DNA of 64,000 nt from Pseudomonadota bacterium (GCA_040387495.1 JAZKDQ010000009.1:1-64000); one strand, 5' to 3'; shown: positions 24,192 to 35,230, counted from the first letter of the stretch. The notes: generated by a model not told the origin, from the letters alone. A program made the numbers and translations.

Positions 24192-24253
24192 CGCCCTCTA
24201 TTTAAAATAAAATATACTCTCATCTTTCATAGAAAAGAATGAGAGACATACGC

Positions 24254-24323
24254 AACAAAACCGCTTTGCTACTTGGGCCATTTGGAATCGTAAATTTCAT
24301 TAATGTAGCACTTGGTTTATTTG
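24254..24323 (-). repeat. 70-bp remnant of tssM 3' region (copy 3)
   Basis: Encodes NKPSATLMKFTIPNGPSSKAVL; matches tssM 28061-28130. Confidence 0.85.
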
Positions 24324-24416
24324 TTGCGCAGAAAAAAATATTATTCCCTTTGCACTTGAAAATATTAAATAAATACCCATATATTGAATTATAAGAACAC
24401 ATCAAGTATATTCATT

Positions 24417-25724
24417 ATGAAAAAAACAATTATTACAGCATTTTCACTCTTCGTTAAATTGCTATGCGCAACCAATGCCTGTGCTGCAACAATTGATCAA
24501 ATATTTAGTTGTGATGCTACGATCAATAATTTAAGCAGTTTTTTATTCTCAGACAGCGGTATTAATACGGAAGAGGATAGGAAAATTTACACCCAATTAG
24601 ATACTGCAGTCACTAACCATGGAAAAAGAAAAAGCTATCGTGAAAAATTTGGCAAAACAATTAAATCATTAAAGCCGTCCCTTATGAGTCCGAAAGATTC
24701 GACATATGTCAATCGTGAAGATATAGCGAAATTGAAGGACCGCCATCCTAATGTAGCACATTTACATTTTTCAGATTACGAAGGAATGCTAGAAAATACT
24801 CTAGATGAATGGATTCAGAATTTCCCTGCCATAACATCTATACATTTAGGTACAGGTACAATCACAGATGAAGGAATTTTTGCCATTGCAGAGAGTTGGA
24901 AACTGCAGAAAATCAATCTATCCCTTAATTTCCTGAGTAATGGACTGACAGAGAATGCGATTATTTCTTTTATAGAGAATTGCCCAACATTGCGAGAGAT
25001 AAGTATAGATGGTGCCTACGTTATCACATATAGAATGTTCATTGCCCTTTCAAAAAACCCCGAGTTACAAATTTTGGATGTATCATGTTGCGTCGGACTT
25101 ACAAATGAAGGGCTTATGGCCATTGCAGAGAATTGCAAGAGACTGCAGGAATTTCATCTATTCTGGTGTGAAACATTCACAGAGGATGCGGTTATTTCTG
25201 TTATAAAGAGTTGCCCAGAATTGCGAAGGATAAGTTTATCTAGTCACTCTATTGCCACTGATAAAACGTTTATTGCCATTTCAGAAAACCCCAAGTTACA
25301 AATTCTGAAGGCAACAAAGTGCGACCAAATTACAAATGAAGGGCTTATGGCCATTAAAAAAAATTGTAAGGAACTAAAGGAAGTCAAACTATCCGAATAC
25401 AATAATAGATTTACTGGGGATGCCATTATTTCAAAAAACACCCTTATTTCTTTTATAGAGGCTTGCCCAAAATTGGAACTTATAGATCTATATTGTATGG
25501 AATCCTGTACAGATGACACGCTTAATGCCCTTATACTGCATTGCCCTTGGTTGAAAAATGTGTCTATCAATGGTTGCCCACAGGTCACATATAAAGGGGT
25601 TATTGCCCTCGCAGAAAATTGTTCTAAGTTGAAAAGTCTTCGCGTATCTGTCGACGACTGGCCTTTTGGAGGATTTGATGATTTAAAAAAAATCTGCAGA
25701 GAAAAAGGTATAGAACTTCTCTAA
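24417..25724 (+). CDS. Secreted Cys-containing LRR protein (FBXL/AMN1-like)
   Basis: Signal peptide; about 26-aa repeats CPxLxxlxl...ITxxGlxAIAEN; start ATG 24417. Confidence 0.85.
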   Translation: MKKTIITAFSLFVKLLCATNACAATIDQIFSCDATINNLSSFLFSDSGINTEEDRKIYTQLDTAVTNHGKRKSYREKFGKTIKSLKPSLMSPKDSTYVNREDIAKLKDRHPNVAHLHFSDYEGMLENTLDEWIQNFPAITSIHLGTGTITDEGIFAIAESWKLQKINLSLNFLSNGLTENAIISFIENCPTLREISIDGAYVITYRMFIALSKNPELQILDVSCCVGLTNEGLMAIAENCKRLQEFHLFWCETFTEDAVISVIKSCPELRRISLSSHSIATDKTFIAISENPKLQILKATKCDQITNEGLMAIKKNCKELKEVKLSEYNNRFTGDAIISKNTLISFIEACPKLELIDLYCMESCTDDTLNALILHCPWLKNVSINGCPQVTYKGVIALAENCSKLKSLRVSVDDWPFGGFDDLKKICREKGIELL

Positions 25725-25761
25725 TTACAAATCCTAACCCTTCTGGGACCTGGCGTGCGAT

Positions 25762-26129
25762 TTACCGTGCTCCAGGCACTTGCTTTACTGGATTAGCTGG
25801 TTGTTGTGTTTGTTGTGGTTGCGCTGCGCCACCTTGTTTCTGTGCAGTAGCAGGTGCAGAAATCGGTGCAGCTGTTGTGCTTCCTGATGATCCTAGCATC
25901 GACGCCCCCTGAACAATTCCCTCGGTCAACACCGCTCGTTCCGCATATAAATCCCCTGCTGGTGGCAATTCTGGCGCCGCCGCAGGAAAATCAGGCAATC
26001 GCATCACCTGCCCTTTTGTATGCGCCGTTAACGCCGGCACTGTTAGTGAAACCGAATTAAACAAAACCGCTTTGCTACTTGGGCCATTTGGAATACTAAA
26101 TTTCATCAATGTTGGGCTTGTTGTATTTG
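25762..26129 (-). pseudogene. Orphan tssM C-terminal copy with an alternative tail (copy 2)
   Basis: 25900-26129 aligns to tssM 27901-28130, frame still open, followed by a different Q/P/A-rich tail. Confidence 0.85.
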
Positions 26130-26223
26130 TTGCGAAGAAAAAAAATATTATTCACTTTGCACTTGAAAATAATAAATACATACCCATATATTGAATTATA
26201 AGAACACATCAAGGATATTCATT

Positions 26224-27431
26224 ATGAGAAAAACAACAATTATTTATTCCCTATTTGTCATAGGCAAGCTATGCACAGTTAATGCATTATGTTCTTCAAC
26301 AAATTTTGATATCACACATCCAGCCATACTTAGCGCTACAGCAGAATTTCTATATTCAAGCGGCATTAACACGATAGATGATGCAAAAAATTATGGTCAT
26401 TTAAATACCGCCGTTACAAATAGTGGGAATCGACCAGCACTAAAAGAATCATACAAACATGCAATCACGTCACTAAATGTAAGTCTTATTGCCAAAAATA
26501 CTGCGTGGATTGAGGATGGGCATTTAGATAAATTGGCAACATTGTATCTCAACCTAAAAGATTTAAATTTCTCACGCTGCGAAGAAATGACAGATGATAC
26601 TTTACAAAAATGGATTAGCTGTTTCCCTAAAGTAACTTCTGTAAATCTAGAATTTTGCAAGAAAATCACAGATAGAGGGGTTAATTTCATTGCACAGCAC
26701 TACCCAGAACTAGAAGAGGTGTCTATATCCGACGGCTCTTCGGCGGGAAGATTACGGATGCAGCAGTTATTGCCCTTGCAAATTGCACAAGACTGAAAGT
26801 GGTAGATCTATACGAGCAACCGAATATTACAGATATTTCGCCTATGCAGTCTCTTGTATATCTTCAATCATTAGAACTGAACAACTGCCCTAACATTGAT
26901 GATTGGTCTGTACTTTCTTCTTTTATAAATCTGGAGTCACTCAATGTTAGAGAGTGTGGCGATTTGACAAATTTTGACCTCAGCAATCATGAAAAACTAA
27001 GAAGCTTAACCTTAAGTCTAGGCAATAATCTCAGAGATGGTCGTCGTATTTTCAATGCTGATGATAATGAGTATAATATAGAAATAATTAATGAAATTAA
27101 GAAAGCAGTATATTTGGAGAGCTTAGCTATCGAAGGAGATTACGTAGAGATTAAAGATCTTTCATTTATTCAAGCATTACCGGAATTAAGATATTTAGAG
27201 CTTGAGGGGGTTACTATTAGTCCCAATGTCTACAAGGGCATAAGAGGTCACCCAAAATTAGAGGAAGTTAAATTTGCTTGTATGTCGTACAGAAACCCAA
27301 GTTCAGATATCGACTCAGATTCAGATGATGATATGGAAGAGGATTCATTGAAGGGGTGGAAAGTAATAACAAAAATGTCAGATATGATTCATGTAGATGA
27401 GGGTTATTATAATTATTTAGTCCGCAAATAA
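26224..27431 (+). pseudogene. Secreted LRR protein, frameshifted near 26725-26750
   Basis: N-terminus resembles LRR gene 24417 (SGINT...LxTAVTNxG); -1 frame continues KITDAAVIALANCTRLKVVDLY into ORF 26799-27431. Confidence 0.75.
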
Positions 27432-27513
27432 ACCATGTAGTCTTACATATGAAGCGACGATACACACCATTCAAGTTTAAATTTTTTGTGAAGTTGATCT
27501 TTTTTACCCACAC

Positions 27514-27656
27514 TAGTTTTCCTCTATCCCCCCCCCTTTTTTTCCTCTGGCTCGACCAGAGGATCCATTTTTAAACAGTGCGGGTGCCTAAGCGAGGGAA
27601 ACTAAAAGAAGGAGGCGGCACCACCGCATGCCGCGCCGGTAGCCCGAGGAAAACTA
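27514..27656. repeat. MITE-like element with TAGTTTTCCTC inverted ends and internal REP-like hairpin
   Basis: TAGTTTTCCTC (27514) vs GAGGGAAACTA (27594) and GAGGAAAACTA (27646); hairpin TCCTCTGGCTCGACCAGAGGA. Confidence 0.45.
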
Positions 27657-27738
27657 AAGAGTAAGCAGTACAACTATGCCTTTTAATCTCAGACGACTGA
27701 TAATCAATTTAAACTTGATCACCTATAGCACATGACTA

Positions 27739-30700
27739 CTATCGTTGCTGCGGGTTTTGAGATGGTTTTTGCGCAGCACCTTGTGTTGCACTTTGCATCA
27801 CTGGATTAACCATCGATTGTTTCCCTTTTTGGTTTTGCGTGCCACTCGCTGGTGTAGGCGTATTTATATTACCTGCGTTTCCTGTTGTACTGTTTACATT
27901 CGACGCCCCTTGAACAACGCCCTCGGTCAATACAGCCCTCTCCGCATACAATTCCCCTTCCGCCGGCAATTCTGGCGCCATCGCTGGAAAATCAGGCAAT
28001 CGCATCACTTGCCCTTTTGTATGCGCCGACAACGACGGCACTGTTAGTGAAACCGAATTAAACAAAACCGCTTTGCTACTTGGCCCGTTTGGAATACTAA
28101 ATTTCATCAATGTTGGGCTTGGTTTATTTGGCGCATTTCCATATTCGTTTACCGCATCTTGCATACGCATCGCCCACAGCAATCCCCAATTCCCTTTAAA
28201 GGTATATGTCGCCGTACGTCCTTCAATGCTTAAGTTAGGCTGGGCAGGGTCACGCTCTGGTTTCGCCGGTATCTTTGCTCCATCTGGCCACCTAAAACTA
28301 AACTTAACCTCGTTACCAAACACCCAACGACCCGTCTTAAGCTTATCGTTTTTATTAATCTGCGTGATATCGTTCGGTTTAAAGACCCAATCAACCACCA
28401 TGTCAGCGCCTGATTCTTTACTGCGATTCGCTCTGAAATCCACCGCAAAGTCAAACGCAGGTACAGGCATTCCACTGCTCGGGTCAAGATAGGGTCCAAA
28501 GAATTGCTTTAGCGTATCAAGTGTTTTGAAAAACTGAGTCCCATTTTTCATGACACTACCCAATTGATGCAACTGATTAAGAATCGTTTCAGTATTGCCG
28601 CCAGCTTCGTTATACAAACGATAAAATTCACGAATGCTCTCAGGATCAGCCTCTTCTGTGACCAAGCTTAGGTTCGATGTTACAAATGGAAATTTACCTT
28701 TTAGATTTTGATTGAAATAAAGTGCTAACTTGGCATACGCAGTAATTGCCTTTTGACGTAATAAAATTTCAGCACGTGATCGTGCACCCTTTTTAAGGGC
28801 CAGCAAGGTTTCAGCAAAAAAATCACCTGAATCACCTCTTAATTCCTTAATTGATATGTGGTTCAAGATCTCTTTAGCATCCATTAGCGCAAGATCTTTA
28901 GTCACAAAATCCTGTAGATTTTGCACCGAATTGCCTGGGATACGATTTGAATAACGCTCCATCTGCTCAACAATACGTGTCCATTTACGCAAGACAGGTT
29001 GCTTTTCGGTGCCATCCGTGAAAACAGGTGATTTTAAAAACATAACGATTGGTTTGGCAAACTCAAGCGCAATTCGTTGAATCAATTGATTTTGCAATGT
29101 CATATAAGATTCCAAATCAGCTGAGTCACGCACGGCAAAACCAGCAAAAGCTGCCCCAGGCTTACCATCCCACCATGAAAATGAGAAATCTTTAACCGCA
29201 TATGGGTTGACCACAGTCAGCATCTTCTTAACGTTATCAAGCAACCAAAAGGAATTATCAACAAGCAATGTCCGCAAATCAGCAAAGGCGATCCCCACAG
29301 CGTCCTTATTTAAGATAGAGAGCAGCTTTGTAAATTTGGGCGCAGATGCATTGAAATCACTGATCTTTGCACGCAATACTTCTTCAGCCGCATTCACACT
29401 ATAGCTTTCAGGCAAATCCACAAAATTCTGAGCCTGACTTAACAAGCTTACAATATTTTGCTGCAAACTTTGACGCGCAAGCAATTTTAGATTTTCCTGC
29501 AATACAATCGGAAAGGTTGATATTTTTCTGCCTGAGAATTCCTCAAATGCTTTACTCATGTCATAAGCAATATCAATCATCTTTGGATCCCAATAGATAA
29601 TCTTTCCTTTAGGTGTCGTTGTCGTAAAGCTGAAATGTGTTGGCGCGGCCATATAGCTTTCCGATAAAAGCGCTGATAAGCAACGTTCGATTTCTAAAAT
29701 ACCCTTCGACGGATAGTTGTTCTCGTCTGCCGTTGCAGCGACCAAAGGTGCAACTGGCCCTGTTGTTTTAGGGCTTAACACAATCGCATTCAATGCTAAT
29801 AGTTGTAACTTTAAATAAGCAAAACCAAGTGCCGCCTTATCAACCAGATATTGCGCAACTTCCTTACCAAACAAACGTGAGGTATCAATTTGGTCAAACA
29901 AAATCTCAAGCTCTTTACCAGGTCTGAAATATTGCTGATCAAGCCATGACTTACCAGCATCCCCGATAAGCGGCCGAGTCTTTGCAAGCTGCAGGCTTAC
30001 TTCACGCAGGTACTTAAGGTCAGGCAACTGATGCGTCGTTTGTTGGCTTAAGCTTGCTAAAAACGTATTCAAACGTGACGGCAAACTGTTCGGCAGCTGA
30101 TTCGAAAAGATTGCATTCGTAAAGTTCTGGAATAACACATCAAGCGTTTCACGGGCGACTTGTTGAAACGTTTCAAGATGCAATGGATTCAATTTCGTCT
30201 CACGCAGCACGTTCCTAAATACTTTGTACTGCTGCCAAAAATCATCAGGCAACTCACACTTAAATGTATAGGCAATCAACGCTCTTAAGTGCTCTGGATC
30301 ACCTGTAATTCTTAGGGAATTAAACATCGCCACATGGTTCGAAAGATCAGTAAGACCATTCACATACCGTTGCAAAATCAAAAACTCAGGACTGCGAAGG
30401 GGCAACAACAACTGCGTAATATTTTGCGAAAAATTATCTGGTGTTGGCCGCAGATAAAGCAATTCTTGTGCGCGAACAGCAAGACCATTGGCAACTGATC
30501 GTATAATGATTTCTTGAAAGGCAATCTTAAGTGACTTATGCAAATCGCGATTCAGATGGCTAAACCAAGACGCCGGTACAAAAATAGAAAACAGATCTGT
30601 CTTTTGCAACTGCATCATCATGTCAACAATCTGATGGGTGTACAAATTAAACTGATCAGCCGATCGATAGGTGCGATGTTTGGAATTCTTCTTATCAATC

Positions 30701-32322
30701 TTAATTTCATGTAATACAAGATTCATGTTTGCAAGCACTGGTGTTATATTATTGCGGCTTTTAGCAAAGGTATCGTAGGCATTAAAAAGCCCGTAGCTTC
30801 CAATAACAACGAACATTCCAGTAATAATCTTTGCAGCTAGAATATTACGATTCAGCGACATCAAACGCTGACGCAGCGGCTTTGCTAGGCCAGGCTCATA
30901 CGCAATCTTTTTGGTAAACAAGTCATTTACATAAATCAGCTTAAGTTCACGGTTTTCATCCATAAGCGGCGGCGCATACACATCGTCCACCACAGGCGCA
31001 GCACCTTCAACTGTCTCTTTTGTCGATTCCAACCGAATCGTTTCAGGGTTAAATGGCAAAGGAATAACGGTAACATCATACGGATCTGTTATATCAGAAT
31101 CATATCCACGATCAAAAGCATCCGCTTTAAGGGGAATTGACGATAGGGCATCTATGCCTGCATCACCCGTGAAATACAATCCGCGAAACACAAAACCATC
31201 TTGATAAGATGACGGCTTAAACAATGAATTCACATAAAGTGACAGTGATTCTTTAAGTTTTGTAATTTCACTTGGAAAGACAAACACGCCATCATTGATT
31301 TCAAGATGAGCATTTAGCAGAGCGCCTGAATGTGCAAAAATATCAAGGCGATGCTGGTGCAGCTTATTTGAAATGGCAGCAAACGCTTCATCAATCCAAT
31401 TGTGCGAAAATGCCGTCGATAAACTATACGGATTAGACCAGCCAAACATATCTTGTCTATTCTTAAGCGGAATATGACGCGCGAAACTTTGAAAGCCCGG
31501 CACGCGATCTGTTTTCGTCACAACAACATAAACCGGTATACGAAGCCCAATCGATATTTGCGCCGCTGTTAATTTAGCTGCGATAAGTTCTGCACGTTGA
31601 TGAATTAGATCAAGTGATTCTTTGTTGCGACCATACAGTTCAGTCGCTGGAATCGTTAGAATAATCCCATTGATAGGACGCGCAGGCCGGTACCGCGTCA
31701 GCAATAGAATTAACGATCGCCATAGTTTTTCTTTTGATTTCAGCGCATCTTTTTGGATGAACAAATCACCCCGTGGCTCGATAAAGACGCCATTCGATAA
31801 GAACCACCACTTGCAATCTGGATTCGCTTTCCCTTTCGAAAAATCAGGTTTCCCCAACGGCAAATGCAACCCAGCATTTTCAAATAAGCTGGATTTTCCA
31901 GACCCTTCTGTACCCAACACAAGAAACCATGGCAGCTGATATTTATAGTTATAGGTGCGGACGGTTTCTTTCAAGAAAGACAGCGCCCTCAGAAAGGACA
32001 GACTTAAATTGCCAACACGAAAATACCCTTTACGTGACATAAACTCGCTAAACCAGCCACCAATGGGGGGCATGCGCTCAGTTTCGTCATACGGTGCATT
32101 ATGATCTTTAGCAGTCGCCGTCTCCTGCTCACGATTAATTTCTGTTCTTTTGTTTGAAATGTACATGATGTACAACAAAATCAACACAATCACAAGAATG
32201 CATATAAACAATAACCACAAGGTCAATGGCACAGACTGAAGGGTCGCCCGAATGCTATTAAGAAGCTGCCTAAAGGAATCCATAAAGCTACCTGCCATTG
32301 ACTCGCCGCCCCTCATATGCAT
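27739..32322 (-). CDS. tssM: T6SS membrane complex protein TssM/IcmF (long form)
   Basis: N-terminal TM, LPWFLVLGTEGSGKS, CKWW, RPARPINGIIL, VTKTD, FRGLYFTG; follows tssL. Confidence 0.88.
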   Translation of the reverse strand: MHMRGGESMAGSFMDSFRQLLNSIRATLQSVPLTLWLLFICILVIVLILLYIMYISNKRTEINREQETATAKDHNAPYDETERMPPIGGWFSEFMSRKGYFRVGNLSLSFLRALSFLKETVRTYNYKYQLPWFLVLGTEGSGKSSLFENAGLHLPLGKPDFSKGKANPDCKWWFLSNGVFIEPRGDLFIQKDALKSKEKLWRSLILLLTRYRPARPINGIILTIPATELYGRNKESLDLIHQRAELIAAKLTAAQISIGLRIPVYVVVTKTDRVPGFQSFARHIPLKNRQDMFGWSNPYSLSTAFSHNWIDEAFAAISNKLHQHRLDIFAHSGALLNAHLEINDGVFVFPSEITKLKESLSLYVNSLFKPSSYQDGFVFRGLYFTGDAGIDALSSIPLKADAFDRGYDSDITDPYDVTVIPLPFNPETIRLESTKETVEGAAPVVDDVYAPPLMDENRELKLIYVNDLFTKKIAYEPGLAKPLRQRLMSLNRNILAAKIITGMFVVIGSYGLFNAYDTFAKSRNNITPVLANMNLVLHEIKIDKKNSKHRTYRSADQFNLYTHQIVDMMMQLQKTDLFSIFVPASWFSHLNRDLHKSLKIAFQEIIIRSVANGLAVRAQELLYLRPTPDNFSQNITQLLLPLRSPEFLILQRYVNGLTDLSNHVAMFNSLRITGDPEHLRALIAYTFKCELPDDFWQQYKVFRNVLRETKLNPLHLETFQQVARETLDVLFQNFTNAIFSNQLPNSLPSRLNTFLASLSQQTTHQLPDLKYLREVSLQLAKTRPLIGDAGKSWLDQQYFRPGKELEILFDQIDTSRLFGKEVAQYLVDKAALGFAYLKLQLLALNAIVLSPKTTGPVAPLVAATADENNYPSKGILEIERCLSALLSESYMAAPTHFSFTTTTPKGKIIYWDPKMIDIAYDMSKAFEEFSGRKISTFPIVLQENLKLLARQSLQQNIVSLLSQAQNFVDLPESYSVNAAEEVLRAKISDFNASAPKFTKLLSILNKDAVGIAFADLRTLLVDNSFWLLDNVKKMLTVVNPYAVKDFSFSWWDGKPGAAFAGFAVRDSADLESYMTLQNQLIQRIALEFAKPIVMFLKSPVFTDGTEKQPVLRKWTRIVEQMERYSNRIPGNSVQNLQDFVTKDLALMDAKEILNHISIKELRGDSGDFFAETLLALKKGARSRAEILLRQKAITAYAKLALYFNQNLKGKFPFVTSNLSLVTEEADPESIREFYRLYNEAGGNTETILNQLHQLGSVMKNGTQFFKTLDTLKQFFGPYLDPSSGMPVPAFDFAVDFRANRSKESGADMVVDWVFKPNDITQINKNDKLKTGRWVFGNEVKFSFRWPDGAKIPAKPERDPAQPNLSIEGRTATYTFKGNWGLLWAMRMQDAVNEYGNAPNKPSPTLMKFSIPNGPSSKAVLFNSVSLTVPSLSAHTKGQVMRLPDFPAMAPELPAEGELYAERAVLTEGVVQGASNVNSTTGNAGNINTPTPASGTQNQKGKQSMVNPVMQSATQGAAQKPSQNPQQR

Positions 32323-33118
32323 GTCGCTTCATCGTCTGCGAGAAAATTGTATTCAAATCCCGATGCATTTCAAAGGCAATACGATACCAAACGACATACG
32401 ATATAAAGATATAAATCAAAAAAACACAAAGCCCATAAATGCCCCATGTTCTAAGATCTGGTAAACCGCGTCCAGGTGGTTCATTGAACGTATGATCGTA
32501 CGCTTCTTCAAAAAGCGCTTTTGTTGTATTTGTATTAAAAAGATGCGTGGGGTCTTGGCAGCACATTTGATACAACTGCTCTTGATACCAACGCACACGA
32601 TCTGACATGTCGTGATCGCGATATCGCCCGCGAAAACCAAGACTAAGTGCCATTAGATAAAGCTGACCTATTTCATAACGGCTCGCATCATGCGTATCAA
32701 ACAAAGCATCAATCTTTTTGAAAAACAACTCGCCAGCAATTTGTGTTTGAAATATTTGACCTTCTAGCAATGACTTCCGCCATTCTTTTGCTCCAGCCCA
32801 CGCTAAATTCAAGAACACCTCGTCCGCAAGCACAACCATAATATATTGCGCATCCTGAAAAAGCCCCGCACTGATGCCACCTGTTTTAGTTGCGTAGACG
32901 CCGCTTTGTACTTCTAAAAACGATTTAATGCGCGCTTGTATTTCATCAATGCGGTTAAAGGTTGCTTGCTCATGCAGTTCTGACTCAGCATGACGCGCAT
33001 CCCCTTCCCCATATCGTAGTGCACGCTCTTTCAAACGAAGAATTTCGTAATAAAATGCTTGAAAGCACTGCAACAATGGGCTGTTATTAAGACGAGATGT
33101 ACGCGTGTTTGTCATCAA
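32288..33118 (-). CDS. tssL: T6SS TssL/DotU
   Basis: LADEVFL, W...LLE, AGELFF, LSLGFRGRY, C-terminal TM. Confidence 0.9.
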   Translation of the reverse strand: MMTNTRTSRLNNSPLLQCFQAFYYEILRLKERALRYGEGDARHAESELHEQATFNRIDEIQARIKSFLEVQSGVYATKTGGISAGLFQDAQYIMVVLADEVFLNLAWAGAKEWRKSLLEGQIFQTQIAGELFFKKIDALFDTHDASRYEIGQLYLMALSLGFRGRYRDHDMSDRVRWYQEQLYQMCCQDPTHLFNTNTTKALFEEAYDHTFNEPPGRGLPDLRTWGIYGLCVFLIYIFISYVVWYRIAFEMHRDLNTIFSQTMKRHAYEGRRVNGR

Positions 33119-33191
33119 TGCTCGCCTCGTTCACTGTGTTTGCGTGTCTGTGGAATAATATAAAAATAATCAGAACACATACAAACCCCAT

Positions 33192-33252
33192 TAAAAATAG
33201 TTAAATTTTTATTAATTATGCGGGTTTTTAAGAATTAATTCAAGAAACAAGG
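33192..33252 (-). promoter_or_regulatory. Sigma70-type promoter of tssL-tssM with CtrA-type box (repeat copy A)
   Basis: Minus strand TTGAAT-17-CATAAT; TTAA-N7-TTAAC at 33200-33215; 38 bp identical to 34880-34917. Confidence 0.65.
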
Positions 33253-33401
33253 TGAAGTCTTCATATCATGCACAAAGGGTATAGGCGTTCCATATGCATT
33301 GAACTGTATATTCACGCAATCTCGACTTTCAAAGTCGAATTAACATGGTAAAAGTGATTATCCTCGCTCAAAAAAAGTCAAATTGAGGATATAATCTATT
33401 A

Positions 33402-33529
33402 TATAGAAGTTCAAGGGTAATTTGAGTATAAGGCGATCAAGGATCGAAGCACGGCATTTACAATTGTAAATGAGTACTGCAGATTTCCGTAGATCAACGC
33501 AATAATCAACTTATAATTGAATTGCTATA
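33402..33529. repeat. RPE-like palindromic miniature element (copy 1)
   Basis: Inverted ends TATAGAAGTTCAA/TTGAATTGCTATA, central CATTTACAATTGTAAATG; related copy at 39499. Confidence 0.65.
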
Positions 33530-34868
33530 CACTACCCTTTGTCTTCGGCACATAACACACAATCTCAACAGGACGACGATCATCCATATCCGATGGATTA
33601 AATATATTCAAATTTTGCTCTGGTATAATAAATTCTGAATCACACATCACTTCAACCACAATCATCCCACGGCCTGGCATAAGCTCAGACAAGGCTCCAC
33701 CATCAAGCAACCTACGTTTCGCCCCAGTAATGCGATGGCTACGCACCATTTCAATGGCAAAATCGCTGCAAATTACAGCATCCATTAACCACTCTTCTAT
33801 TTGAGAAGCCGTCATTCCTTTTGGTGCACGCAGGCCAATCAAAAACGTATTAGTCATATAATTCTTATGAAGCCGCAGATAAAACAAACGTTCTTGTTGT
33901 GAAAATGGAATAACCGCATAGCTTTGCTCAATCGTATTAAGATAATGCTTAAGCAGCTCTAACAAAGGTGCGAAACACCCTTGAATGTCATTGTGATTAT
34001 ATCCTGGCAAAATAGGCGGCAATTGCGATAAACGAAGCGATGCAAGATGCCCTGCCGTATCGCATATCTTCTGAAATAAAACATATGGGTTCGTTGCTGG
34101 AGCATTCAAAATTGTTTCTAACGCAGGCAGCGCCGTGATTAATGGCCTTAGCAACATTTCTGTTTCAACCATTAAAGGTGTGCCTATTTGATTTTGCCAC
34201 CGTTCGCTTAAATAAGTAGCTTTCTCGCGAATACGTTGTGCAAGTTCTGCGCATTGTTTCCATAAATGTGTGTCGTGCGTAATGTAAAAGCAAGGCGGTA
34301 CAAAAGGCGCACGGCCGTATGACTCATCAAATGCAATTTTCAAGATAGGAAAACCTTGGCAAAGCGCAGGCGCCTTATTACCCACACTTAAAATCAAACG
34401 TGGAAATAGTCGTGGAATCGAAATAACATTATCCGACATATTTTCATCTTTAACGGCATCACCCTCGATGGAAATAAATCGCGGAAAATCACCCGTTGTT
34501 GGTGATCTATCGCCGCTACGTTCAGGCATAGATAGAAAAATGGTAATTTCTTCACGTGCAGTTTCAGGTTGATAACCACGAATATCAAGTTCAAGCGGCG
34601 GGACCTTAGCCATATCAGACCGATAATTCACAATCAACCCGTCGGGCATAACCACTTCAAGTTCAAGGATGCGGACCAGCCCATCAGTAAGTGCTATTGG
34701 GTCCACATGCAAAATATTTACGCCCCAATGATGATTGGAAAGCAGGTGCAGCTGATGCGCTAAGTGTTGGTGGTGACGCAGTTCCATTTGCTGAAAATGC
34801 TGAGGAGTCAACATCATGCCTTCATGCCAATGAATATGCGGGACGATTGTAAGATGACGTGCAGACAT
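33525..34868 (-). CDS. tssK: T6SS baseplate TssK
   Basis: WHEGMMLTPQHFQQ, MPDG, FVPPC, YNHNDI..CF. Confidence 0.92.
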   Translation of the reverse strand: MSARHLTIVPHIHWHEGMMLTPQHFQQMELRHHQHLAHQLHLLSNHHWGVNILHVDPIALTDGLVRILELEVVMPDGLIVNYRSDMAKVPPLELDIRGYQPETAREEITIFLSMPERSGDRSPTTGDFPRFISIEGDAVKDENMSDNVISIPRLFPRLILSVGNKAPALCQGFPILKIAFDESYGRAPFVPPCFYITHDTHLWKQCAELAQRIREKATYLSERWQNQIGTPLMVETEMLLRPLITALPALETILNAPATNPYVLFQKICDTAGHLASLRLSQLPPILPGYNHNDIQGCFAPLLELLKHYLNTIEQSYAVIPFSQQERLFYLRLHKNYMTNTFLIGLRAPKGMTASQIEEWLMDAVICSDFAIEMVRSHRITGAKRRLLDGGALSELMPGRGMIVVEVMCDSEFIIPEQNLNIFNPSDMDDRRPVEIVCYVPKTKGSV

Positions 34869-34879
34869 GCGGACTCCAA

Positions 34880-34940
34880 TAAAAATAGTTAAATTTTTAT
34901 TAATTATGCGGGTTTTTTGTGATTAGTTCAAGAAACATGG
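34880..34940 (-). promoter_or_regulatory. Sigma70-type promoter of tssK with CtrA-type box (repeat copy B)
   Basis: Minus strand TTGAAC-17-CATAAT; TTAA-N7-TTAAC at 34888-34903. Confidence 0.65.
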
Positions 34941-35230
34941 TAGGAACAGCTTCACCTTAATATAAACACCATAAGAGAGCGAAGTCTTTTAATCTACGCT
35001 TAATTGTCACCCTATAAGCTGCCTTTCTCCAGCCATCACCTTGGTAACACATAAGGTGGTGACGTTAACCCCAATAAAATAATCGTATTTAAGGTTAAAC
35101 TATATGCGCCTGAAGACACGTAAGACCTGCTGCATAAGTCATCTTTTGCCATAAGGATTTCTGCTGCTGGTCAGATGAATAATCCGGCGTATCCAGGAGG
35201 TCTGCAATTTCTTTTAAAACAGGAGCTCTT

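Follow-up and report, generated by a model that had tools for sequence, protein, structure and literature searches.

A probable two-step displacement array of tssM 3' ends carrying leucine-rich-repeat genes in an alphaproteobacterial symbiont

According to Jackson et al. (2009, PMC2935791), Rhs loci undergo C-terminal displacement that leaves arrays of dissociated tips. A conserved body gains a laterally acquired end by homologous recombination, for which circular intermediates are proposed, and old ends are pushed back and piled up in an array that starts from a common homology border (PMC2935791). Sequential displacement of effector-immunity modules has likewise been proposed for Vibrio cholerae's type VI secretion system (T6SS); in that account (Kirchberger et al. 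2017, PMC5361080), modules enter 3' of T6SS genes via a homologous anchor combined with illegitimate joining, whereby genes and 3' remnants already in place move further back, and complex arrays spread by ordinary homologous recombination. The locus described here resembles both. It lies within a 64,000-nucleotide (nt) stretch of DNA from a Pseudomonadota bacterium (GCA_040387495.1, JAZKDQ010000009.1:1-64000; hereafter the window, to whose full length all coordinates refer), where three copies of the 3' end of the T6SS gene tssM occur together with two genes for leucine-rich-repeat (LRR) proteins on the opposite strand. We consider it probable that the locus is a two-step displacement array, in which gene ends were displaced by recombination with diverged relatives.

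The comparison with known systems also reveals clear differences. Unlike in Rhs loci, the anchor is a structural T6SS membrane protein and not a polymorphic toxin, the displaced piece carries no toxin domain (no Pfam hit), and the cargo is a separately transcribed, opposite-strand gene for an LRR protein predicted to be exported, in place of a toxin tip with its immunity gene. Furthermore, each unit possesses a second conserved arm, the promoter. The slot that an immunity gene would occupy in an Rhs, contact-dependent inhibition or MafB locus is taken by a convergent gene for an LRR protein of approximately 435 amino acids. An initial annotation, made by a model from the DNA alone, had likened the locus to the orphan arrays of Rhs and MafB; the common homology border agrees with this, but the toxin domain and the same-strand immunity gene are absent. 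For V. cholerae, the retained immunity genes clearly explain by selection why displaced material is kept (PMC5361080), whereas the gene ends kept here have no evident use and the cargo is not an effector-immunity pair. In addition, both units share one junction, pointing to the homologous spread of a single founding module. The same annotation had considered the arrangement undescribed; its mechanism is known from Rhs loci and the Vibrio T6SS arrays, but no array of tssM 3' fragments is described in the open-access literature searched.

The window lies on contig C9 of a genome (G000) of 1.66 Mb in 20 contigs that is 99.9% complete. The working tssM gene (27739-32322, minus strand) is a whole open reading frame (ORF) of 1527 amino acids matching the Pfam family IcmF-related_N (1.1e-43), and its last approximately 400 nt (27739-28140) form the segment that is copied twice more, as a displaced 3' end (c2; 25762-26129, minus strand) and as a 70-nt stub (c3; 24254-24323, minus strand). 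In the direction of tssM, the order is tssM, a spacer, LRR2 (26224-27431, plus strand), a promoter and 5' region termed region 'a', c2, a gap of 38 nt, LRR1 (24417-25724, plus strand), a second region 'a', c3 and then unrelated genes. Both LRR genes are convergent to tssM, and the two units stand head to tail. Repeat and junction alignments place the region 'a' copies at 26130-26223, fused to c2, and at 24324-24416, fused to c3 (both plus strand). The direct repeat of the tssM 3' end brackets inserted DNA while the tssM ORF stays whole.

Three sets of repeats underlie this anatomy: an 85-nt family at 24254-24338, 26060-26144 and 28061-28145, whose second and third members, in c2 and tssM, are 89% and 78% identical to the first, in c3; a 231-nt pair (25899-26129 and 27900-28130, 89% identity); and a 104-nt pair (24332-24435 and 26139-26242, 93% identity). 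A 182-nt query of c3 with its promoter matches exactly three places in the 1.66-Mb assembly (other copies at E 8e-68 and 5e-20), and the promoter alone matches only its own two copies by short-word BLAST of the whole assembly. Both c2 and c3 meet the promoter at one common junction, with tssM homology stopping near 28140. The stub reads NKPSATLMKFTIPNGPSSKAVL, beyond which homology is lost. By comparison, c2 comprises the conserved C-terminal module and low-complexity tail of TssM in an open frame of 115 codons, with a tail and stop codon of its own; no Pfam family is matched by c2. Much of this had been recognized in the initial annotation, and our analysis upholds it: the three copies of the tssM segment, the single junction at which the extra copies leave tssM, the near-identical promoter and start regions ahead of the LRR genes, the divergence of those genes (40% in their N-terminal domains against 90-93% in fragment and promoter), and an open c2 with mostly silent changes. 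With regard to the promoter, region 'a' copy 2 contains a sigma-70-like TTGAAA-18-TATATT at 26163-26192; a scan for promoters gave 13 sites where 13.6 are expected in shuffles and hence no enrichment, so the label reflects position and conservation only.

The repeats are genuine and do not stem from assembly errors. In the run that is probably the source, the junctions of c3 with its promoter (24259-24402) and of c2 with its promoter (26091-26209) are spanned by separate contigs at a depth of 12-14. A 55-nt piece common to c2 and tssM has a depth of 21.7 against 9.7-12.3 beside it in the Logan contigs, which end at the repeats, as is to be expected. Exact identity between c2 and tssM reaches 48 nt at most, which is less than the read length. 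Moreover, the same architecture is present in G001, an independent metagenome-assembled genome.

DNA behind tssM was compared in six congeners and one metagenome contig (L034). In G001 the order is tssM, an LRR ORF of 393 amino acids (363 from the likely ATG), c2, an LRR gene of 515 amino acids, a c3 stub of approximately 25 nt and gene X. The G001 c2 has 69 codons, and its only lesion is an in-frame deletion of 45 codons between two AVL repeats, which lies in the most conserved part of the C-terminal module. In G006, the tssM stop lies 10 nt from an ortholog of gene X (58% identical) and there is no LRR gene. Other genes follow tssM in G003, G002, G004 and the metagenome contig, so that the array is absent from five of the six readable relatives; the G005 contig stops approximately 600 nt past tssM with nothing recognisable. 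In a tree of the 386 tssM codons upstream of the junction, the topology is (G000,(G001,G006)) with a bootstrap of 100 for G001-G006. By this tree and the empty site, the array is carried by G000 and G001 and is missing from G001's sister. The junctions of the two arrays are homologous, the same promoter (-35 to ATG) being joined to tssM within approximately 13 nt of the same position. Junctions this close are unlikely to arise from two independent illegitimate events, and a single origin is therefore the economical reading. The gene at the distal flank in G000 is unrelated to that flanking the array of G001.

The array is rare. A query of the 499 C-terminal amino acids of TssM finds matches in all 41 of 41 genomes, and more than one match in G000 only; a short profile of the C-terminal module finds it in all 62 genomes of the order, with extra copies only in G000 and G001. 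The array is confined to 2 of these 62 genomes. A metagenome scan with the TssM end gave a single relative among 99 pattern matches, which was G003-like and had no array. A profile search with the C-terminal module against 1.84 billion representatives returned 42 hits, including three orphan-like candidates that were set aside as uninformative: P0011 and P0014 begin exactly at MKF or MLKF and P0003 is a type-A tail piece, but all may be just cut genes because their source contigs measure only 0.8-1.7 kb.

The site behind tssM is variable genus-wide, and not only where LRR genes occur. Every congener has different, mostly family-less genes there (L030 1652-6412; L028 3608-8802; L032 1529-3517), several of them with N-termini that look by eye like signal peptides, and in G002 (L031 4965-9986) a protein of 1673 amino acids made of periodic cysteine repeats is encoded 3.4 kb behind tssM. 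Relatives accordingly do not show one fixed arrangement: G001 has different LRR genes, others have other genes or nothing, and alternative contig joints occur.

The core idea of the initial annotation, an incoming tssM end and LRR gene displacing the old end, fits these observations best. In a founding event, tssM would have recombined with DNA of a diverged relative that held a convergent LRR gene with its promoter together with a tssM 3' end; the route would have been homology-facilitated illegitimate recombination or the integration of a circle through a single crossover. The incoming DNA would give tssM a new end, leave the old end behind the inserted gene and create the junction of promoter and tssM fragment near 28140. 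From then on, the orphan fragment could serve as a second homology arm, allowing a donor array to add one unit by ordinary homologous recombination, one crossover, on the left, falling within the tssM body and the other, on the right, pairing the orphan of the donor with the working end of the recipient; the promoter could alternatively provide the right arm for later units. Each round of this ratchet would move the former working end one place back, making c3 the oldest displaced end, followed by c2 and then the working end. The fragments would be by-products rather than genes, and no recombinase would be needed.

The pattern of substitution in the fragments supports this view. The G000 c2 differs from its own tssM by 15 synonymous and 8 non-synonymous changes over 69 codons (synonymous divergence, dS, 0.38; non-synonymous divergence, dN, 0.053; ratio 0.14) and from the G001 tssM by 27 and 10 (dN/dS 0.08); the G001 c2 differs from its own tssM by 13 and 3 in 31 codons (10 and 0 in the first 20; dN/dS approximately 0.05). 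Full neutrality is rejected in these three comparisons at p=4e-5, 2e-9 and 8e-6, respectively, and a model that lets the orphan drift neutrally over half of the path at p=0.006, 2e-5 and 8e-4. If synonymous sites are counted conservatively, the half-neutral p is 0.064 for c2 and its own tssM and 0.0013 for c2 and the G001 tssM. Although their tails contain indels, both c2 copies also stay in frame as far as a stop close to its usual position. Thus, c2 shows no sign of neutral decay: old copies lying dead in place misfit the codon counts, whereas ends that evolved in working genes and were recently set aside fit them.

The identity between the two G000 units is strongly mosaic. Across fragment and promoter it amounts to 54/60, 53/60 and 56/60 and holds until approximately 16 nt past the ATG, after which it drops to 29/60 and 21/60 and then to near-random values in the LRR body (approximately 35-55%); in the tssM part of the units it climbs again through 45/60, 52/60 and 57/60 to 54/60 (75% to 95%). 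Within c2, identity to the working gene is 83/87 in the 87 nt that follow the junction and 101/120 in the 120 nt beyond them, a contrast of 4 against 19 differences (Fisher p=0.013), and this 120-nt segment matches the working gene of G001 at 103/120. In G001, 47 junction-side bases of the promoter are identical in both units, and the adjoining tssM parts are 84% identical. Decay of the fragments grows with distance from tssM, the working end being intact, c2 near-intact and c3 a stub in both genomes (70 nt in G000, approximately 25 nt in G001).

The c2 tail of G000 does not match the genome in which it lies. The G000 c2 tail is closest to the working tail of G001 (73%, score 147), compared with 67% and a score of 86 for the working tail of its own genome, which in turn pairs with the tail of G006 (74%, score 148). 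The c2 copy and the G001 working end read PALT and AAAP where G000, G006, G003 and MG34 read PSLS and A[MIL]AP, and c2 is tied to the G001 working end by three residues, namely A and T within PALT and the central A in AAAP. Similarly, the G001 c3 reads PSPTLMKF, as do G000, G006, G003, MG34 and G002, whereas the G001 gene and c2 read STLLKF. Over the final 315 nt ahead of the tails, the identity of G001 and G006 is 76.5%, down from 83.1% (p=0.008), a fall that four other pairs lack. This fall hints that the working end of G001 was imported. TssM ends in a low-complexity tail of 50-75 residues (window 27739-27918 and the corresponding part of L028-L034), in which Q, A, P, G, S and T abound; its length and sequence differ in every congener, while the 70 residues ahead of it are well conserved.

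A rival history, which we regard as unlikely, would be that the LRR gene and the tssM 3' end were duplicated in tandem in place, or triplicated and later trimmed, and then evolved by unequal crossing-over and gene conversion, the tssM fragments being dead remnants and the LRR paralogs having diverged under diversifying selection. Head-to-tail units with one repeated junction are what such a process yields; the two G001 units are 84-94% alike, with LRR N-domains 75% identical, and the junction-side parts are near-identical within each genome, as concerted evolution gives. A dead copy, however, should change approximately neutrally, which is at odds with the ratios of 0.14, 0.08 and approximately 0.05 and with the open frames in both genomes. 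Nor does duplication in place account for a G000 c2 whose tail and three diagnostic residues match the working end of G001 and not that of G000, or for divergence that ranges from 93% to approximately 35% identity within one unit. The number of fragments also disagrees, since it equals that of the LRR genes and duplication of a resident LRR gene would leave one fewer; the only escape is that a third unit was deleted independently in both genomes.

The displacement of gene 3' ends by homology-facilitated illegitimate recombination or Campbell-type integration is a known mechanism, and tssM is not the only gene in G000 to bear its marks. Self-comparison of the genome gave 140 local direct-repeat pairs, of which 34 have one copy in the 3' end of a gene (within the last 600 nt of an ORF of at least 250 amino acids) and the other copy downstream. 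Excluded before counting were pairs flagged as paralogs, repeats within a single gene (C6 28783-30231), pairs with the gene-side copy falling outside the coding sequence (C14 91007, C15 13971) and three weak or ambiguous pairs (C1 3397, C14 113125, C16 1693). Nine other genes with displaced ends, pooled, show 139.2 synonymous and 50.8 non-synonymous differences (per-site proportions pS 0.374 and pN 0.040), a result that rejects the half-neutral model at 7e-27. Locus by locus, the bias is strong for a dicarboxylate symporter gene (31/5), an ABC-type ATPase-like gene on C6 (41/6) and genes of 447 amino acids on C4 (22/4) and 655 amino acids on C1 (9/3), and weaker for a gene of 259 amino acids on C4 (27.7/19.3). 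Short or near-identical pairs show no bias or are untestable (C6, 410 amino acids, 1/2; C13, 672 amino acids, 3/8; the ATP/ADP translocase gene tlc, 3.5/3.5; bipA, 1/0), and two of the nine orphans hold a stop codon. The loci include C1 27627-31167, C14 94161-99446, C17 30833-33858, C6 139471-142785 and others (L077-L079).

The cargo at these sites is varied. The symporter gene is followed by a Sel1-repeat protein gene and an orphan that is an open frame of 105 codons, bipA by an unknown gene, and tlc, whose end is present in three copies, by two cargo blocks, a toxin-antitoxin pair and a fatty-acid hydroxylase set. As at tssM, a direct repeat brackets the insert at such scars, and the current and old ends differ mainly silently. 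Most scars are single, with two-step arrays only at tssM and tlc, and only the tssM locus repeats the same cargo family with the same junction. Hence tssM is one of at least ten anchors sharing one silent-site signature, and the proposal that it acts as a special landing pad cannot be sustained. Because the same bias is found at unrelated displaced ends, two of them with stops, it needs no function in place.

Variation within the population can be followed in Logan contigs only, and run X3 holds next to nothing of the stretch. A contig of 373 nt and depth 4 in run X2, which represents a further sample from the same study, connects 28231-28036 with 26034-25858; this hybrid consists of the tssM body with the c2 tail, one unit being lost. 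In run X1, from the source sample, positions 26158 and 23923 are linked, with 28 other letters between them, by a minority contig (depth 4.7 against 12) that may represent a strain with the order promoter, LRR2 and tssM that lacks LRR1, c2 and c3. Read as a simple flank-promoter-LRR2-tssM state free of fragments, it would speak for duplication in place. Several contigs depart from the reference at 24225, 24376, 26135 and elsewhere, which suggests that the unit borders vary in structure. A further contig follows the reference rightwards from 26135 and is preceded by tssM-fragment-like sequence absent from G000. With up to 3 mismatches allowed, G000 contains neither of the 30-letter continuations found at 24376 and 26135, which shows only that these two strings belong to other strains or organisms.

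It is tempting to speculate that the junction of promoter and tssM fragment acts as a portable two-armed cassette, passing LRR host-interaction genes among co-infecting endosymbiont lineages through ordinary homologous recombination at one unit per transfer, with the spare ends as a reservoir for tail switching; exchange of the TssM tail would then be selected because the tail is exposed. We find this quite improbable.

Selection could also act on c2 itself, preserving it as a silent donor cassette for TssM tail switching, in the manner of pilS for pilE, or as a small expressed protein, an explanation that we hold to be improbable. The open frames and silent-site bias in two genomes, the hypervariable TssM tail among congeners, the contig from the other sample with the tssM body joined to the c2 tail, and a second homology arm behind the tails in G001 (102 nt at 90%) would all agree with it. 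Yet nine unrelated genes show the same bias at their displaced ends, stops included, and from the G001 c2, 45 codons are missing where the module is most conserved. The c3 copies are stubs, 60 of the 62 genomes have no spare copy, and a reading of the c2 sequence shows no evident signal peptide or ribosome-binding site for a stand-alone product. Moreover, switching between direct repeats deletes a unit and is therefore not reversible.

A replacement 3' end with silent differences is a classic mark of integrative elements, as for phage e14 at icd, but it is very unlikely that the units are small elements that each bring a replacement gene end and were inserted in tandem by a trans-acting site-specific recombinase, with the 70-85-nt segment found at each unit border in three copies as attachment site, since no recombinase gene lies in or beside the array (ORFs, Pfam), the Pfam Phage_integrase model has one weak match in the G000 genome (28 bits, on contig C15), the homology of c2 and tssM, with 231 nt and the tail besides, is much longer than a core site, and a site-specific enzyme would not explain ten anchor genes of unrelated sequence. 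As a separate observation, typical XerC/XerD were not detected with the Pfam tyrosine-recombinase model in this 99.9%-complete genome.

Sequential displacement remains the reading that we favor, and several points weigh against it. The codon counts come from only 31-69 codons, and the conservative test of c2 against its own tssM reaches only p=0.064. Maximum-likelihood trees of the 87-nt and 120-nt segments are unresolved, and the informative sites in the 3' part are split, 4 grouping c2 with G000 and 5 with G001. For the near-identity of the first 87 nt of c2 to the working gene, one must further assume recent gene conversion or a donor whose copies resembled each other. The resemblance of the G001 units throughout (84-94%) is also expected from recent duplication in place. 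The displacement model makes LRR2 the cargo that arrived last, although this gene is the broken one. The junctions in G000 and G001 differ by approximately 13 nt, and a single origin is likely but unproven. No donor lineage has been identified for the incoming end, and we infer only from sequence patterns that these intracellular bacteria exchange DNA at all. Finally, the hybrid contig of run X2 crosses the 48-nt exact repeat at depth 4 and may be an assembly chimera at k=31.

Of the two opposite-strand, signal-peptide LRR genes initially proposed, both indeed encode LRR proteins with N-termini that read by eye, without a predictor, as Sec-type signal peptides, but only LRR1 is intact (435 amino acids; Pfam LRR_6, 7e-13). 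The frame of LRR2 is broken by one frameshift between approximately 26731 and 26750, giving ORFs 26191-26796 and 26799-27431 in different frames, both with LRR hits in Pfam; the letters at the frameshift are identical in Logan contigs of two samples (runs X1 and X2). The two proteins share 40% identity over 141 aligned N-terminal residues, and LRR2 is 45% identical to the proximal G001 copy. After the putative signal peptide, LRR1 carries FBXL-type (cysteine-containing) leucine-rich repeats, and its best solved relatives are FBXL2 (6o60_C, 2.6e-30), FBXL17, TIR1 and SKP2. The repeats likewise resemble the GALA effectors of Ralstonia, for which the match is weaker (4xa9_A, 1.5e-4). Unlike FBXL and GALA proteins, LRR1 lacks an F-box, no such family being matched in a Pfam scan of the LRR proteins at E<=0.01, and it carries a putative Sec-type signal peptide instead of a type III signal. 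LRR1 is thus FBXL-like, as judged by sequence, in its repeats only. The short N-terminal domain, a further difference, is found only in G000 and G001: a word-index search returned the window's own protein alone (1 hit among 438 candidates), and a scan of the species genomes the G001 contig alone. The cargo is probably a fast-evolving exported FBXL-like protein that serves as a host-interaction factor, and nothing beyond gene position links it to the T6SS.

The surroundings of the array are those of a T6SS membrane complex. A DotU/TssL gene (32288-33118) adjoins tssM and a VasE/TssK gene (33525-34868) is its neighbor, both from the Pfam scan, with PF14331, PF09850 and PF05936 matched among tssM and these genes, an IcmF-family gene beside TssL and TssK. 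A TssC sheath gene is on contig C6 (PF05943, 427 bits), and the Pfam Hcp model has no match in the G000 genome. Between the convergent LRR2 and tssM lies a spacer of 308 nt (27432-27738) with terminator-like hairpins on both strands, at 27543-27563 (plus) and 27634-27615 (minus); unit 1 has nothing that corresponds to this tssM-side spacer, its gap measuring 38 nt. A 77-nt repeat of 86% identity (33177-33253 and 34865-34941) stands directly upstream of the tssL and tssK starts. Both copies contain TTAA-N7-TTAA, which we take to be a form of the CtrA box, and end in ATG. The repeat suggests that tssL and tssK have one common regulatory leader, and tssL may start upstream of its listed TTG.

Taken together, our findings do not define a new kind of system and give no evidence that the LRR proteins use the T6SS; they provide a natural record of sequential gene-end displacement outside toxin loci, with three ages in a row and a sister species in which the site is empty. 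For annotation they carry a warning, as short open 'TssM C-terminal' ORFs can be scars. Along with the nine other displaced ends, the array indicates that a small-genome, uncultured alphaproteobacterial symbiont often takes up DNA of diverged relatives. Uptake of this sort is a route to exported eukaryote-like repeat proteins of the LRR and Sel1 types, and the finding therefore bears on the turnover of host-interaction genes in intracellular bacteria, which are usually thought to be isolated.

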